A stretch of 64,000 nt of DNA from Patescibacteria group bacterium (GCA_038064695.1 JBBTSO010000001.1:85932-149931); one strand, 5' to 3'. Positions 4,840-37,945 are shown, counted from the stretch's first letter. Program-made: numbers and translations. Notes: generated by a model not told the origin, from the letters alone.

Positions 4840-4985
4840 ATAAAAAGTATAACAAAAATAGGAAACGTCTCATAACGCTCCGACCCGGACTTTGTCGTCA
4901 CGAATAATTACTCGTCAGCCCTCGTAATTTTCGCGACCCCGGCTCACGGTCTCGTCTGCTGACTCGACATCGTTCCGCCTCGGAC

Positions 4986-5016
4986 AAAATCATAAAACCT
5001 GCCGCAGGGCAGGTGT
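4986..5016 (-). terminator. intrinsic terminator downstream of tRNA-Lys
   Basis: In the minus sense the sequence reads cctgcc-ctgc-ggcagg followed by ttttatgatttt. Confidence 0.55.
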
Positions 5017-5028
5017 TTATGTATTTTG

Positions 5029-5101
5029 TCCGCCCGCTTGGGATCGAACCAAGGACCTTCTCCTTAAAAGGGAGCTGCTCTACCGGCTGAGCTACGGGCG
5101 G
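5029..5101 (-). tRNA. tRNA-Lys (anticodon TTT)
   Basis: Manual fold of the reverse complement: acceptor CCGCCCG/CGGGCGG, D arm GCTCAGCCGGTAGAGC, anticodon loop CTTTTAA, T arm CTTGGTTCGATCCCAAG. CCA is not encoded. Confidence 0.85.
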
Positions 5102-14280: not shown

Positions 14281-14898
14281 ATGGCACATCTTTTTTTAAT
14301 GCGACACGGCATGAGCGAGTGGAACAAGCTCGGACTCTGGACTGGGTGGACTGACGTTGATTTGGCTCCGGAAGGGAGAAATGAAGCACGTGCCGCTGCA
14401 AAGTTTTTTAAAGATGTTGCAATTCAGAGTGTACACACTTCTACACTGAAACGCGCGCAACAGACTTTTGCTGAAATTCAAAAAGAACTTTCGTGGCATG
14501 ACCTTGAGCCGTGTGTCTCACCGGCATTAAACGAGAGAAACTATGGGGTTTACACGGGACTCGTAAAAGAAGAAGTGCGAAAAAAGGTAGGGGAGGAGGA
14601 GTATAAAAAAATTAGACGCGGTTTCTCCCATCCCATTCCTGAAGGAGAGTCACTCGCAACCGTGTTTGAGCGCATTAGCTGTTATTTTGAAGATCATGTT
14701 CGCCCTGAACTTCGTCATGGGAAAAACGTGCTCATCGTGGCTCACGGCAACTCGCTCCGCGCACTCGTCAAATACTTAGAAAACATTGACGACGAATCTA
14801 TTGTTGACGTGCATATAGAAACGGGGGAAGTGTACCGGTATGAATTTGATTCGCGCGGACTCTTGGTGGGGAAGCAGATACTAAAAAACGCCGCGTGA
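14281..14898 (+). CDS. gpmA: 2,3-bisphosphoglycerate-dependent phosphoglycerate mutase
   Basis: LMRHGMSEWN (RHGxSEWN motif) and a histidine phosphatase fold. Confidence 0.85.
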   Translation: MAHLFLMRHGMSEWNKLGLWTGWTDVDLAPEGRNEARAAAKFFKDVAIQSVHTSTLKRAQQTFAEIQKELSWHDLEPCVSPALNERNYGVYTGLVKEEVRKKVGEEEYKKIRRGFSHPIPEGESLATVFERISCYFEDHVRPELRHGKNVLIVAHGNSLRALVKYLENIDDESIVDVHIETGEVYRYEFDSRGLLVGKQILKNAA

Positions 14899-17201: not shown

Positions 17202-17335
17202 TGCGGGCCGAGCATTATACCCTCGGTCATTGGCATGCAAGCACGCCATGACCCTCGTGTGTGCTCTCGGTAACTAACGTTGCCGATTCGCACAACTTCA
17301 AAAATACTGAAGCAAGCTTCGTATTTTGTTCAGTT
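17202..17335 (-). repeat. additional tandem copies of the tRNA-Arg(GCG) 3' end separated by long hairpins
   Basis: gctctcggta-type copies at about 17202 and 17264. A 17-bp-stem hairpin (cacaacttcaaaaatac...gtattttgttcagttgtg) lies between copies. Confidence 0.5.
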
Positions 17336-17498
17336 GTGCTCTCGGTAGGAAGTGTCTTGTGTAAGACACAAGCACGCATCGGTCACGGATAATTTTCTGC
17401 TAAAAATTTCCGCGACCCGACAAAAGCGACGGCAGGCAGTTTTTGTCCCTGCATAGACAGGTGAGGCGCCGTCGCGCCTCCGGTTTTCGATTCCTACC
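17336..17498 (-). mobile_element. miniature tRNA-3'-end-associated element (copy at the tRNA-Arg-GCG locus)
   Basis: In the tRNA sense it starts ggtaggaatcgaaaaccggag, an inverted copy of the cognate T-loop region. It ends gacacttcct followed by taccgagagcac, a direct repeat of the tRNA 3' acceptor. It contains the ~75 bp core shared with 28033-28105. Confidence 0.55.
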
Positions 17499-17590: not shown

Positions 17591-17662
17591 GTGCTCTCGG
17601 TAGGAATCGAACCTACATTGCAAGCTCCGCAAGCTTGCGTCCTATCCATTGAACGACGAGAG
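17591..17662 (-). tRNA. tRNA-Arg (anticodon GCG by manual fold)
   Basis: Reverse complement gives acceptor GCTCTCG/CGAGAGC, anticodon stem CAAGC/GCTTG with loop TTGCGGA, and T arm GTAGGTTCGATTCCTAC. Confidence 0.7.
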
Positions 17663-17689
17663 CATAGTTGCTTACGGGAAGCGCGTAGC

Positions 17690-27867: not shown

Positions 27868-27940
27868 GGCCCCGTAGTTTAATGGATAAAACAGGAGACT
27901 TCTAAGCTCTTGATCCAGGTTCGATTCCTGGAGGGGCCAC
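27868..27940 (+). tRNA. tRNA-Arg (anticodon TCT)
   Basis: Acceptor GGCCCCG, D arm GTTTAATGGATAAAAC, anticodon loop CTTCTAA and T arm CCAGGTTCGATTCCTGG. One mismatch at 31-39 and one at 7-66. Confidence 0.8.
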
Positions 27941-27948
27941 CCGCATAA

Positions 27949-27977
27949 AACGCCGACTCTATGTCGGCAGTTTTTAT
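27949..27977 (+). terminator. intrinsic terminator after tRNA-Arg(TCT)
   Basis: gccgactctatgtcggc followed by agttttt. Confidence 0.55.
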
Positions 27978-27992
27978 AAGGGAGGGGCGCTG

Positions 27993-28116
27993 GGCCAGGA
28001 ATCGAAAACCGGAGATGCGACGGCATCGAGGTGGGGTCGCGGAATTTTTCAGCAGAAAAATATCCGTGACCGATGCGTGCTTATGTTTTATATAAGACAC
28101 TTCCTGGCGGGGCCAC
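27993..28116 (+). mobile_element. miniature tRNA-3'-end-associated element (copy at the tRNA-Arg-TCT locus)
   Basis: Starts ggccaggaatcgaaaaccggag, an inverted copy of the tRNA T-loop/3' stem. Contains the ~75 bp core at 28033-28105. Ends acttcctggcggggccac, a direct repeat of the tRNA 3' end ttcctggaggggccac. Confidence 0.55.
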
Positions 28117-28826
28117 TAAAGCACTATTTCTTTTTTCTCTCTGAGTAGGCGGATACCGAGGTAGGAGAGCGGGGTATACAAGAAACCCATCGCTACCTTA
28201 AAGAGCCACCACGTAATAATAATGCTAATGAGCGTGTTGGTGTCGTAGACTCCCAAAAATGCAATGAGCATAAAAATGACCGTGTCTAAAAGTTGAGACC
28301 ATGTGTTTGAAAGGAATGAGCGAAGCCAAAATAATTTTGCGCCGAATTTTTCTCGAAAAAAGAAAAACGACACTACGTCTTGATACTCTGCAATTAAAAA
28401 CGCCGCGAGCGACGCTACGGCAATGCGAAGCGAAATACCAAATACTTGGTTGTACCCGTTGTGCACCCACTCACCACTTTCTGCCCAGGGAAGCGCGAGC
28501 GAAAGTAGTGAGAATGCAATAAAGAGTGCCGTACTTATAAACCCCGCAAACACAAACAGTTTTGCGATGCGTTTTCCGTACACTTCACCAATAACGTCGG
28601 TCATTAAGAATACGATAGGGAATGAAAACACCGCCACCGAGAGGTGTGAACCAAACAAAAAAGGCATTATTTTTAGCCCGAGCGTGTTTGCGGCAAAAAG
28701 CGCTGTGAGGTACACCGTGAGTGCAATACCAAGGTTGCGAATGGAGCGTTCGGAGAGTTCAGGCATAGTGAATGAAAACAGTATGCCACAGAGAAACAAT
28801 AAGCCGAACATTCTTTTTGCGGTCAC
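28116..28826 (-). CDS. YhhQ-family (queuosine-precursor transporter-like) membrane protein
   Basis: VFSFPIVFLMTDVIGEVYGKR resembles the YhhQ/DUF165 signature. Six TM helices. Confidence 0.55.
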   Translation of the reverse strand: MTAKRMFGLLFLCGILFSFTMPELSERSIRNLGIALTVYLTALFAANTLGLKIMPFLFGSHLSVAVFSFPIVFLMTDVIGEVYGKRIAKLFVFAGFISTALFIAFSLLSLALPWAESGEWVHNGYNQVFGISLRIAVASLAAFLIAEYQDVVSFFFFREKFGAKLFWLRSFLSNTWSQLLDTVIFMLIAFLGVYDTNTLISIIITWWLFKVAMGFLYTPLSYLGIRLLREKKEIVL

Positions 28827-29062
28827 AATTCTTTATTTTGTGGTCACCCGGCGCTGAGAGACTTGGTCAAGCGCTCGTTCGGCGTATAAAACAATGAGCC
28901 GAACATTCTTTATGTGGTCACTCGTCACTAAGTATTTTTCTTCCTGTTGTCGAAAAATACTAAGTGCGTTCGACCCCGCCTCGCGGTCGCGTGCTTCACG
29001 CGACATCACTCCGGCCCCCACAAAGCAAAAAACCGGTACGCAGGTACCGATTTTTGTCTTTG

Positions 29063-29135
29063 TGGGCGCTGAGGGACTTGAACCCCCGACCTTCTCAGTG
29101 TAAATGAGTTGCTCTACCAACTGAGCTAAGCGCCC
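29063..29135 (-). tRNA. tRNA-Val (anticodon TAC)
   Basis: Reverse complement gives GGGCGCT acceptor, GCTCAGTTGGTAGAGC D arm, anticodon loop TTTACAC and T arm GGGGGTTCAAGTCCCTC. Confidence 0.85.
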
Positions 29136-31122: not shown

Positions 31123-31206
31123 GCGCAGGTGGCGAAATTGGTAGACGCACTACCTTGAGGTGGTAGCTCCCGCAAGGGAATGGAGGTTCAAATCCTCTCC
31201 TGCGCA
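31123..31206 (+). tRNA. tRNA-Leu (anticodon GAG)
   Basis: Acceptor GCGCAGG, anticodon stem CTACC/GGTAG with loop TTGAGGT, a long variable arm and T arm GGAGGTTCAAATCCTCT. Confidence 0.85.
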
Positions 31207-31210
31207 CACG

Positions 31211-31243
31211 GCCCAAAAACTCAAACTTCTTTGAGTTTTTGGG
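31211..31243 (+). terminator. intrinsic terminator after tRNA-Leu
   Basis: gcccaaaaactcaaa-cttc-tttgagtttttgggc. Confidence 0.6.
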
Positions 31244-31371
31244 CACGTATGCGGGCCGGAGCCATGTTTTCCGTTTCGGAAAACGGGCGAGGAGGGGTCA
31301 CAACCGAGGCGAACGACGGTAAGCCGAGAGTTGTGACCACACGGCGATAAATCCGCATCCCGCTTCTTCAT

Positions 31372-31444
31372 GGTGGCTATGGTGTAACGGTTAACACTGG
31401 AGCTTGTGGAGCTCTCGATCAGGGTTCGATTCCCTGTAGCCACC
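31372..31444 (+). tRNA. tRNA-His (anticodon GTG) with genomically encoded G-1
   Basis: GGTGGCTA...TAGCCACC gives an 8-bp acceptor including G-1. Anticodon loop TTGTGGA, T arm CAGGGTTCGATTCCCTG. Confidence 0.85.
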
Positions 31445-31507
31445 CAGAATAATAAAATTCCGCGCGTGCGGGTTTTTTATTGCTCTGGGGGCTAAACGAG
31501 CAAATTG

Positions 31508-31627
31508 TTTTGCTCGTGTTGGGAATCGAAAGTCGGAGCCATGTCGCTTGCGACAGGTGAGACCGGGTAGGAGCCACTTAACGAGTGTGGCGAGTTTAGT
31601 GAGCTGGCGCCGATTCCCTGTAGCCAC
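31508..31627 (+). mobile_element. miniature tRNA-3'-end-associated element (copy at the tRNA-His locus)
   Basis: Starts gggaatcgaaagtcggag, an inverted copy of the tRNA T-loop region. Ends ccgattccctgtagccaccca, a direct repeat of the tRNA-His 3' end. Confidence 0.5.
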
Positions 31628-31655
31628 CCATTTTGTACGTTATAGTTTGAGTAAC

Positions 31656-37198: not shown

Positions 37199-37945
37199 AT
37201 GCAATTTATCCCGTATAAAACGCGTGTCCTCACTCCGCCTAAAGACGACCTTTTTGAAGCTATTAAGAGTGCAAAACTCAATATCAAAGATGGGGACGTG
37301 ATCGTCGTTTCTTCAAAGGTGGTGAGTATTGGTGAGGGGAGGTGTCTTCCTTTCAAAAACCAAGCTCAAAAGGATCGCCTTGCCAAAGGTGAAGCTGACT
37401 ATTTTGTAGACATACGCCGTTCCTCTGTATGGAAATCGCTCTTTACGGTTACCGAAGGGGTGCTTATAGGGCGAGCGGGAATTGATGAAAGTAACGGCAA
37501 AGGTCACCTCATTCTGTATCCGAAAAACCCTATGAAAAGTGCGGATACTTTACGAAAATGGTTTCAAAAAACGTACTCAGTAAAAAAACTTGGAGTCATA
37601 ATTTCCGACTCGCGCAGCACCCCTTTGCGTCGTGGTGCTATCGGGTTTGCACTTGGGTGGGCAGGCATTGTGCCCTTAAAAGACTACCGAAAAACAAAAG
37701 ATTTATTTGGGCGCGCGTTTCAGGTTGAAATCGCGAACATCGCCGACGGACTCGCGGGAGGAGCGGTGGTAGCGATGGGGGAAGGGAATGAGCAAACGCC
37801 GATAGTTGTTATACGAAATGCGCCGGTGGTATTTACTGAAAAAAAACGACCACAAGAGCGAATAGTAAAAGTGAAATTAGAAAATGACCTTTTCAGTCCG
37901 TTTCTTTTAAAATTGAAGTGGAAGAAAGGAGGGGGAAGAGATTAA
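37199..37945 (+). CDS. coenzyme F420-0:gamma-glutamyl ligase (CofE)-like protein
   Basis: DGDVIVVSSKVVS.EGR and GIDESN motifs of the CofE/FbiB N-domain family. Confidence 0.55.
   Translation: MQFIPYKTRVLTPPKDDLFEAIKSAKLNIKDGDVIVVSSKVVSIGEGRCLPFKNQAQKDRLAKGEADYFVDIRRSSVWKSLFTVTEGVLIGRAGIDESNGKGHLILYPKNPMKSADTLRKWFQKTYSVKKLGVIISDSRSTPLRRGAIGFALGWAGIVPLKDYRKTKDLFGRAFQVEIANIADGLAGGAVVAMGEGNEQTPIVVIRNAPVVFTEKKRPQERIVKVKLENDLFSPFLLKLKWKKGGGRD

Follow-up and report, generated by a model that had tools for sequence, protein, structure and literature searches.

Introduction

Tyrosine-recombinase att duplications, together with their integrase-less derivatives (CIMEs, satellites), offer an obvious comparison for any small unit found behind a tRNA gene, and they share with the elements reported here the tRNA 3' site, a duplication of the tRNA's 3' part in direct orientation and a displaced copy of ancestral appearance, as well as presence/absence among relatives and accretion in tandem. 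Other described systems resemble these elements in other respects: tRNA-like processing signals, such as plant mitochondrial t-elements and the mascRNA of MALAT1, the known ones being degenerate whole tRNAs; the primer-binding sites of retroviruses and LTR retroelements, which are exact complements of the last ~18-22 nt at the 3' end of one particular tRNA; structured bacterial repeats and MITEs, such as REP/BIME, Correia, RPE and RUP; and tRNA introns, which in archaea may lie in the T-loop.

The elements in question (hereafter, modules) stand behind tRNA genes, and in each of the complete ones a complement and a copy of the neighbouring tRNA's end enclose a conserved core. Unlike att duplications, the modules use one core for 26 isoacceptors, have the complement and the copy built into a covarying helix, are 100-200 nt long without an integrase, and have the edges of the copy fixed at C56 and C74. 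With t-elements and mascRNA they would share acceptor/T-arm-like stacked helices placed beside other RNAs, as candidate substrates of RNase P/RNase Z, but the modules have a non-tRNA core for the T-loop, a single hairpin for the D and anticodon arms, and helices that are sequence-matched to the neighbouring tRNA. The exact complement to a tRNA 3' end that reaches into the T-loop is a feature of primer-binding sites too; in the modules, however, this complement is split by a hairpin (P0), there is neither a reverse transcriptase nor an LTR context, the gene of that very tRNA is adjacent, and complementarity to CCA exists only where CCA is gene-encoded. REP/BIME, Correia, RPE and RUP are likewise small, gene-less, multi-copy, hairpin-forming, intergenic, often near terminators and patchy, whereas the modules lack fixed terminal inverted repeats and a short target duplication, target solely the tRNA 3' flank, take their terminal arms from that target, and are diverged with compensatory changes, showing no recent burst. 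A MITE was rejected for the locus studied, as the terminal arms vary by locus (being the local tRNA end), the copies in the stretch analysed are diverged, and none of them lies away from a tRNA. As to non-canonical tRNA introns, one locus (L062) does have the core within the T-loop of a tRNA-Arg, and another (L086) has a bacterial group I intron, in the anticodon loop, yet the modules are devoid of a bulge-helix-bulge and of a group I or II core, and 88 of the 89 copies leave the tRNA uninterrupted.

The TIGR-Tas/box C/D guide arrays of CPR bacteria were weighed as well, for their tandem G-A-like loops and CPR distribution, the published account of TIGR-Tas being without a tRNA link; they were rejected, the module consensus having no RUGAUGA/CUGA boxes and the surroundings of 77 copies no Tas-like neighbour.

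No known counterpart was found for arms that are an exact copy and an exact complement of the neighbouring tRNA's last 19-21 nt, arranged round a conserved junction core. If confirmed, the modules would represent a class of structured non-coding elements that is both abundant and widespread in Patescibacteria, and would provide a handle on tRNA transcript termination and maturation in reduced genomes, on the persistence and movement of gene-less elements in bacteria dependent on DNA uptake, and on the tRNA 3' end as a programmable address.

Results

The tRNA-Arg(TCT) locus

The locus lies within a 64-kb stretch of Patescibacteria DNA that was analysed as a whole (hereafter, the window) and that is ordinary chromosome, encoding PolA, enolase, several aminoacyl-tRNA synthetases, SHMT, ThyA and RecA; among the 38 of its ORFs that were tested, Pfam searches revealed no integrase, transposase or reverse transcriptase. 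The tRNA-Arg(TCT), in whose sequence G7 and A66 form a mispair, is separated from the module by a terminator, T1 (GCCGAC-TCTAT-GTCGGC followed by a T tract, with an A tract on the upstream side). Beyond it, TTCGATTCCTGG (27920-27931) recurs exactly in inverted orientation at 27995-28006, and TTCCTGGAGGGGCCAC (27925-27940) recurs directly at 28101-28116 with a single mismatch, C standing for A at tRNA position 66. A first-pass annotation of this locus had quoted both repeats, the inverted one as a 12/12 T-loop copy, and had its strings and coordinates right; its description of a small, non-coding, non-autonomous unit at a tRNA 3' end, lying between the 3' end proper of that tRNA and its duplicate, holds as well.

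Both repeats are real, the contribution of chance being negligible: by our own arithmetic, the chance p of an exact 12-mer on either strand within ~200 nt is ~2e-5, that of a 16-mer match in a 250-nt span, one mismatch being allowed, is ~3e-6, and window-wide shuffles at relaxed settings give 0.3 expected matches. Since the two repeats are mutually complementary and form the closing stem of the unit's fold (GCCAGGAA at 27994-28001 pairing with UUCCUGGC at 28101-28108), they are one feature and not two independent ones. The fold itself reaches -62.3 kcal/mol on the + strand (z = -6.6 vs shuffles) and -49.1 kcal/mol on the - strand (z = -5.4). The coordinates of this locus and of its sister modules are given in Table 1, where X denotes the tRNA 3' end, X' its complement (X'T being the part that complements the T-stem 3' strand and the T-loop), and P1 to P4 are helices of the module.

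Table 1. Features of the tRNA-Arg(TCT) locus and of the sister modules, in window coordinates
Feature	Position	Strand	Evidence or remark
tRNA-Arg(TCT)	27868..27939 (ends 27867/8-27939/42 by caller)	+	ARAGORN; Rfam RF00005, 59.6 bits
Proximal X of tRNA-Arg(TCT)	27920-27940	+	T-loop, T-stem 3' strand, acceptor 3' strand, A73, C74
T1, bidirectional intrinsic terminator	27951..27977 (hairpin 27951-27969 + T tract)	both	terminator scan, both strands
GGAGGGGC, 8-nt direct copy of tRNA 27930-27937	27981..27988	+	sequence; comparison with full modules
Conserved core, R1 match	27994..28080	+	covariance model R1; 73.8 bits, E 3e-19
X'T, CCAGGAATCGAA, exact reverse complement of tRNA T54-G65	27995..28006	+	sequence, fold
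P3, long hairpin, GGUCGCGGAAUUUUUC-AGCA-GAAAAAUAUCCGUGACC	28035..28071	+	fold; covarying helix 5 in alignment A3
P4, extra hairpin within P1 3' strand (CCGAU/P4/UUCCUGG)	28075..28100	+	fold, comparison
Distal X, TTCCTGGCGGGGCCAC, direct copy of tRNA positions 59-74	28101..28116	+	15/16, C66 replacing A66
Module behind tRNA-Arg(GCG) (tRNA 17591-17663)	17261..17498	-	R1 core match 17372-17498; has P4
X'T of Arg(GCG), GGTAGGAATCGAA	17486-17498	-	
Distal copy of Arg(GCG), TTCCTACCGAGAGCACAA	17334-17351	-	third partial copy 17261-17272
Module behind tRNA-His (tRNA 31373-31445)	31518..31630	+	distal copy CGATTCCCTGTAGCCACCCA, 20/20, at 31611-31630
Module behind tRNA-Leu(GAG) (tRNA 31123-31207), class II	31241..31347	+	
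Module behind tRNA-Val(TAC) (tRNA 29062-29135), class II	28850..29029	-	
Module behind tRNA-Lys(TTT) (tRNA 5028-5101), class II	4887..4993	-	CGGACAAAAT complement at 4981-4990

Sister modules in the window

The covariance model R1 has exactly six matches in the window, every one of them directly following a tRNA gene on the same strand, and none elsewhere, so that six of the seven tRNAs are occupied (Arg-TCT, Arg-GCG, His, Leu-GAG, Val and Lys), tRNA-Ser alone being without a module. The flanks of Arg(GCG), His and Val had first been flagged by a tRNA-centred repeat scan, which looked downstream of each tRNA for its own T-loop in inverted orientation and its own 3' end in direct orientation. 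The six copies are strongly diverged among themselves, and three of them (Val, Lys and Leu) belong to a class II of shorter register, the closing helix of which consists of the last few tRNA nucleotides plus an A-rich flank and the complement of both; this helix extends the terminator's own stem, the 5' strand of the module prolonging the 3' arm of the terminator. Behind tRNA-Val(TAC), the GCGCCCACAAAG complement is found at 29014-29025 and the distal copy, CAAGTCTCTCAGCGCC, at 28850-28865; behind tRNA-Leu(GAG), the closing strand copies just the tRNA end and flank (CACACGGC), and tRNA-His begins 26 nt past the module.

A family behind Patescibacteria tRNA genes

BLAST of the Arg(TCT) unit against 80 syntenic loci from Patescibacteria genomes (tRNA-Val, Vut_1, ..., tRNA-Arg(TCT), pilus genes) showed no simple conservation. 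The tRNA flanks have in common the motif GAATCGAAAG-NCGGAG-hairpin-GAG-NCGGGGUC-long hairpin-GUGACCGA, and R1 retrieves 83 copies outside the window, 6 in the 80 Patescibacteria genome loci and 77 in 80 metagenome loci; as the latter loci were picked by a pattern scan with TCGAAAGNCGGAGNCATGTC, which includes the T-loop complement, class I is over-represented in the statistics that follow. A same-strand tRNA lies at most 400 nt upstream of 69 of the 89 copies, usually across a gap of 22-104 nt, and 26 isoacceptors are represented. The remaining copies are situated at contig ends, are second units of tandems, stand behind tRNAs with group I introns (which ARAGORN misses), or are among a few orphans, which follow decayed tRNA remnants; the upstream RNAs of L086 and L109, for which tmRNA was considered and rejected, are tRNAs carrying group I introns. 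A terminator separates tRNA and module at 48 of 62 loci, and at the other 14 the gap is without a T tract. Occupancy, at six of seven tRNAs in the window, is 5/61 in relatives not selected for the motif.

Searches of Rfam 15 with the locus and three good copies, at gathering and permissive E thresholds (up to 1-10), placed no family on the module, the matches at these loci being tRNAs only, plus the one group I intron in L086. No Rfam match and no core motif recognizable by eye spoke for a hammerhead, hairpin, HDV, twister or pistol ribozyme, and these were rejected. A pattern scan of IMG/VR yielded no copy, BLAST of phages and plasmids with the full module yielded no match, and the clustering of neighbouring proteins round 77 copies returned housekeeping genes only, with no recurrent family or enzyme. 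In the full-text literature, the coverage of which is incomplete, no prior description or comparable family was found, and an earlier description is possible; the modules thus apparently form an undescribed family of folded, RNA-like elements directly behind the tRNA genes of Patescibacteria (CPR bacteria).

Conserved fold and architecture

RNAalifold applied to 12 copies, after which R1 was built, found compensatory changes in 23 of 27 pairs. In alignment A3 (77 copies), 93.8% of the cells pair, a double-sided change is seen in 26 of the 27 pairs, and the covariation score is 0.562, compared with 0.157 for shuffles, of which 0/500 attain the observed value, and no more than 0.09 for slid controls. 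Of the 50 pairs in the full-length alignment A4, compensatory change is seen in 33, including pairs of the acceptor-like helix, of P0 and of P1, and single-sequence MFE folds reproduce the architecture of this alignment. The module is a conserved, covarying structured element that is specific to tRNA flanks and has its closing helices programmed by the 3' end of the adjacent tRNA. The excess of G-U over A-C pairs (41 vs 16) indicates the tRNA-sense strand, the + strand fold being likewise the more stable one, and this strand bias, taken together with the orientation, would favour a function as RNA rather than as ssDNA.

A complete copy starts from a tRNA ending in X (positions 56-74), usually followed by T1, and then comprises X'acc (complementary to the acceptor 3' strand, N73 and C74 included), hairpin P0 with its YUGY tetraloop, GU, X'T, AAAG, the core, the direct X copy and, often, a second terminator. 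The core is a three-way junction of P1b, GGAG-P2-GAG and GGGGU-P3-GUGAC, within which the nucleotides of GGAG, GAG and GGGGU are unpaired and invariant. In the predicted fold, X' and distal X pair into an acceptor-like helix of 8-9 bp and a P1 of 8-11 bp, the two being coaxial, with the 3' strand unbroken and the 5' strand split by P0, and both the T-loop nucleotides (within P1) and the discriminator are paired. The topology so modelled is that of the acceptor/T-arm "top half" of a tRNA, with the core in the place of the T-loop. Such stacked helices with a continuous 3' strand are predicted for the complete members, and P1 only for the Arg(TCT) copy.

The segment at 27981-28116 is a member, in part degenerate, of this family of ~100-200-nt structured elements at tRNA 3' flanks. 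Its X'T is perfect, its core is present and its distal X agrees at 15/16, but X'acc and P0 are absent, GGGAGGGGCGCTGGG standing there instead and containing a stray direct 8-mer of the tRNA (GGAGGGGC) in the slot where complete members have the acceptor complement and P0; L062 carries the homologous CAGGGGCGTTGGG. With X'acc and P0 missing, this copy is possibly non-functional. Its core runs P1 5' strand, AAA, P1b (ACC/GGU), GGAG, P2 hairpin (28014-28027), GAG, P3 and CCGAU, and the additional P4 is common only to the Arg(TCT) and Arg(GCG) modules of the same genome. The distal X, which provides the P1 3' strand and the acceptor 3' strand, abuts the stop codon (28116-28118) of a Vut_1/YhhQ-type transporter gene that lies in convergent orientation (an exact-sequence lookup of the window's Vut_1 protein returned no record). 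Its C66 pairs with G7, as does the C66 of L020, a relative in which the site is empty, whereas the tRNA itself uses A66; this supports C66 as the probable ancestral state, a pattern to be expected if the native 3' end was displaced.

Arms and the local tRNA

The inverted T-loop/stem agrees with the local tRNA at 10 or more of 12 positions in 46 of the 62 copies, the distal copy at 14 or more of 15 in 32, and the inverted acceptor at 7 or more of 8 in 31. The direct copy begins at C56 in 27/32 cases and stops 1-2 nt beyond N73 in 20/32. Rather than copying the tRNA 5' strand, X' complements the 3' strand, as is evident from L065/L066 (GCAGG vs GTAGG in the tRNA) and also from L001; between L001 and L002 one T-loop base differs, and X' covaries with it, and the conserved GU (its U following P0) produces a mismatch at position 65 that is systematic. 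Of the 36 positions at which distal copy and tRNA disagree, X' forms a Watson-Crick pair with the tRNA in 28 and with the distal copy only in 3. The agreement of X' with the tRNA, closer than that of the distal copy, hints at a real X'-tRNA interaction or a templating mechanism.

Relatives, empty site and turnover

In L020, a syntenic relative, tRNA-Arg(TCT) is followed by unrelated sequence, which is the empty site, while L065, L061 and L048 have another core between the inverted T-loop copy and the direct 3'-end copy, with arms that covary with their own tRNA-Arg (CCTGC replacing CCTGG); the cores of L066 and L062 are homologous to that of the window's Arg(TCT) module. L062, L065, L066 and L061 come from close strains, and their tRNA-Arg loci nevertheless differ, those of L062 and L065 being entirely different between nearly identical flanks. 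Tandem arrays are either recent (L114, 98.7% identity) or diverged (L098 and L117), both units still folding in the latter. Cores 85-99% identical are found behind unrelated tRNAs, with arms re-matched, and mostly it is the core alone that is shared; L083 and L120 share terminator T1 as well, and T1, P0 and core moving as one mobile scaffold ("mosaic re-writing") was rejected as a general mode, being restricted to this pair. As the borders of the core, GGAATCGAAAG and GUGACCGAUUCC, go back to the conserved T-loop, recombination between modules can explain core exchange.

L062, from Parcubacteria bacterium Greene0714_7 (VMHB01), is peculiar in that its tRNA-Arg(TCT) reads GGTTCGAT/module/TCCTCGCGGGGCTAC, with the proximal 3' end missing; virtual splicing restores a tRNA-Arg(TCT) that ARAGORN accepts, the acceptor stem having two G-U pairs, and a virtual-splicing scan for more interrupted tRNAs among the 89 copies returned L062 only. 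Such a variant hides a tRNA gene from tRNA finders. A classic partial-tRNA duplication also exists in the same clade, at the tRNA-Ile of L050.

Discussion

On balance, we lean towards the module being a co-transcribed element of the tRNA trailer, a gene-less mimic of the tRNA top half that turns over via the duplicated 3' end, and not an att scar. It would be transcribed from the tRNA promoter, which requires read-through where T1 is present, and at the approximately one-fifth of loci where no T tract stands between tRNA and module co-transcription would be obligatory; it is these 14 of 62 gaps, along with tRNA-His only 26 nt after the Leu module, that argue for co-transcription, and the terminator intervening at the other 48 loci would limit the transcription of the module. 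X' could pair alternatively with the tRNA's own 3' half (T1 then becoming part of a long hairpin) or with distal X, the latter in this manner freeing the tRNA and giving a closed module that, as a tRNA-like substrate, enzymes of tRNA end processing might excise; with neither T-loop nor elbow in the mimic, and with the discriminator in a pair, it is not assured that RNase P or RNase Z would recognize it. The element would persist as a gene-less hitch-hiker, the direct X repeats permitting its precise loss and, together with the conserved tRNA, its regain by homologous recombination in bacteria that naturally import DNA, and cores might swap between modules through the common T-loop-derived borders. 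Recombination accounts for loss, regain and core exchange, but not for the first origin of arms matched to 26 tRNAs, and the closeness of X' to the tRNA likewise falls outside what this reading spells out.

Three other readings are less probable, in the order in which they are taken here: a quality-control or processing switch, a guided or primer-like device, and a T-loop intron. The first, which seems rather unlikely, would make the module a host-beneficial cis-regulatory element of the tRNA 3' trailer, with X' sensing whether tRNA positions 54-74 are free or folded, and, no more probably, with the choice between X:X' and X':distal-X setting processing, degradation (e.g., by RNase III acting on the X-T1-X' duplex) or read-through. 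Each complete copy does possess three mutually exclusive pairing partners, X' complementarity is held to the tRNA more than to the distal copy, the structure is under strong purifying selection (diverged tandem copies included), position and orientation are strict, and in class II the module 5' strand prolongs the terminator. A housekeeping device, however, would be expected to be more uniform than what is seen, namely 6/7 tRNAs here vs 5/61 in unselected relatives, an empty site, swapped loci, and orphan, degenerate and tandem copies, and a downstream gene to regulate is often absent, the Arg(TCT) flank being a convergent gene.

Also unlikely, and less credible than the switch, is a tRNA-programmed RNA device in which X'acc and X'T guide to tRNA positions 54-74, distal X is a spare or product and the core is catalytic or recruits protein, and which would act on tRNA 3' ends by exchange, repair, priming or sensing, or insert itself behind whatever tRNA gene it targets by re-templating its arms from there. 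Its more specific form is improbable to a slightly greater degree: a nucleic-acid-guided mobile or acting RNA whose X', as a guide or a primer-binding-site-like segment, pairs with the 3' 19-21 nt of the tRNA or its gene. Equally doubtful are the roles assigned to the other parts, the core recruiting or being the catalyst and distal X being the product or replacement copy, and, to the same extent, the activities proposed, i.e., tRNA-primed or -templated reverse transcription, 3'-end exchange or repair, or guided insertion. If true, this would be an RNA-guided system of an undescribed kind. Retroviral primer-binding sites and tRF-3 fragments cover the same tRNA 3' span, and the arms are indeed exact complements and copies of tRNA 54/56-74 with sharp edges at T-loop and 3'-end landmarks; X' follows the tRNA, near-identical cores occur at unrelated tRNAs with re-matched arms (L083 and L120 having T1 in common too), and the core has its invariant unpaired GGAG, GAG and GGGGU. 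Yet a reverse transcriptase, nuclease or transposase was neither found in the window nor recurs beside modules, P0 splits the complement, as a simple copying reaction would not be expected to do, the conserved GU causes the systematic mismatch at position 65, and most pairs of loci share the core alone, for which plain recombination suffices. The copy, moreover, stops at C74 as in the gene, without CCA unless this is gene-encoded, which indicates that it derives from DNA or a precursor and not from the mature tRNA.

That the element is a T-loop intron, interrupting the tRNA between positions 55-59 and 56-60 and removed as RNA, with proximal X and T1 as accessories, is very improbable. For the window copy it was rejected outright, tRNA-Arg(TCT) being intact, and elsewhere it draws on the interrupted tRNA of L062 with its ARAGORN-accepted spliced form, on X'T complementing the ligated junction, and on a read-through transcript being able to fold with tRNA positions 1-55 paired to distal X; against these stand the single copy of that type among 89, its pseudogene-like acceptor stem with two G-U pairs, the intact tRNA and terminator preceding the module at most loci, and a ~90-nt core that matches no known ribozyme or intron model.

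The first-pass annotation had proposed a remnant, or a miniature mobilised in trans (weighed here as cis-mobilisable), of tyrosine-recombinase integration into the T-loop region, with the duplicated 3' half as attL/attR, and had suggested looking for an empty site, for further core copies and for an integrase. The empty site exists (L020 has the tRNA-Arg(TCT) and not the unit), and so do further copies of the core, five more in the window and 83 in other Patescibacteria contigs by R1; no tyrosine integrase was found among the 38 window ORFs tested. A 3'-end repeat at every tRNA, which the annotation had named as counter-evidence, is nearly the situation in the window (6/7). What stands of its alternative of miniature element or att remnant is a non-autonomous unit that is gained and lost; the att scar does not, given the family-wide RNA-like fold. 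The direct repeat of an att remnant is present (15/16), the distal copy has the ancestral-looking C66, and classic partial-tRNA duplications occur in this clade (the L050 tRNA-Ile), but an integrase within the window and specificity for a single tRNA are both lacking. A single integrase with a single attP cannot yield one core at 26 isoacceptors with arms re-matched each time, and att remnants have no reason to preserve a deeply covarying secondary structure. In an attR, furthermore, the 5' strand of the T-stem and the loop would be found in direct orientation, whereas the "inverted T-loop copy" serves as the P1 5' strand and complements the tRNA 3' strand, and is, hence, no recombinase core site. 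With six of seven tRNAs occupied within 64 kb, and no recurrent protein family beside the modules, the integrase reading fails on its target range, the covarying fold and the missing recombinase; it is largely refuted and has, in our estimate, scarcely any chance of being correct. The tRNA-3'-end repeats of the modules do, nonetheless, resemble the att sites of prophages and islands, by which island predictors are liable to be misled.

Module variants at tRNA-Arg(TCT)

Among the Patescibacteria genome and metagenome loci compared with the window (L-numbered here), L062 carries a tRNA-Arg(TCT) whose T-loop is split by the module (GGTTCGAT / CAGGGGCGTTGGG...GCCGA / TTCCTCGCGGGGCTAC, slashes marking the breaks), and which possesses neither a proximal 3' end nor a terminator. 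This gene is not called by ARAGORN, and virtual splicing of the locus restores the tRNA-Arg(TCT); it would represent either a pseudogene or a tRNA with a T-loop intron.

At the same tRNA, a second core unrelated to the first (“type A”) occupies the same frame in L065, L061 and L048, the order being acceptor complement, hairpin, T-stem/T-loop complement, core and direct copy of the tRNA-Arg(TCT) 3' end. Composite or tandem units are seen in L061 and L066, where TTCCTGCAGG recurs at every junction and the last copy holds a conserved 26-nt insert. In the relatives L048, L061, L062, L065 and L066, RibD_C-like and F420-0:gamma-glutamyl-ligase-like genes separate Vut_1, the YhhQ-type transporter gene, from the tRNA-Arg module; the window's ligase-like gene (37199-37945) lies 9 kb away, beside dCTP deaminase and thymidylate synthase genes, and it is due to this different gene order that the distal tRNA copy now adjoins the Vut_1 stop codon.

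Coordinates of features discussed in this section
Feature	Location	Strand	Model match
Module-interrupted tRNA-Arg(TCT)	L062:4985-5160	window orientation = reverse	
“Type A” core loci	L065:4955-5215; L061:2235-2904; L048:4975-5702		
tRNA-Ile partial duplication	L050:2100-2210	-	
33-nt direct repeats and further repeats	window 28794-28932		
TACCGAGAGCAC copies downstream of tRNA-Arg(GCG)	window 17261-17347	-	
Group I intron in tRNA	L086:1727-1967	-	Rfam RF00028, 76 bits

Other tRNA-associated repeats and 3' ends

A partial tRNA-Ile duplication in L050, running from the anticodon stem through CCA and placed 30 nt downstream of the gene, is a classic, ordinary integrase-type att signature and shows the clade to contain tRNA 3' repeats of either kind.

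Between the tRNA-Val module and the Vut_1 start, the window holds a pair of 33-nt direct repeats (AAACAATAAGCCGAACATTCTTTTTGCGGTCAC, 91% identity) and additional GTGACCRCA...AAAGAAT repeats, which look like stacked partial module 3' ends within the transporter leader; Rfam called no preQ1 riboswitch. TACCGAGAGCAC is found three times, in tRNA-Arg(GCG), in the distal copy of its module and 75 nt beyond, the third copy being preceded by a terminator and a GTGCGAATCGG stub, which together look like a collapsed second module.

Most window tRNA genes (at 5028, 17591, 27868, 29062 and 31123) lack an encoded CCA; their position 74 is a C, with an A-rich stretch after it (..AC/AAA), and this C74 is where the module's tRNA 3'-end copy ends; CCA is gene-encoded in tRNA-His and tRNA-Ser. 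At 31123-31630, tRNA-Leu(GAG), a terminator, a module, tRNA-His, a second terminator and a second module follow one another, with only 26 nt between the Leu(GAG) module and tRNA-His, an arrangement implying either leaky terminators or a promoter within the Leu module.

The RNAs upstream of the modules in L086 and L109, considered as tmRNA 3' ends, were rejected as such in favour of a group I intron within a tRNA (RF00028, L086); similar sequence is present in L109 near 14320-14480, and both tRNAs escaped detection by ARAGORN.
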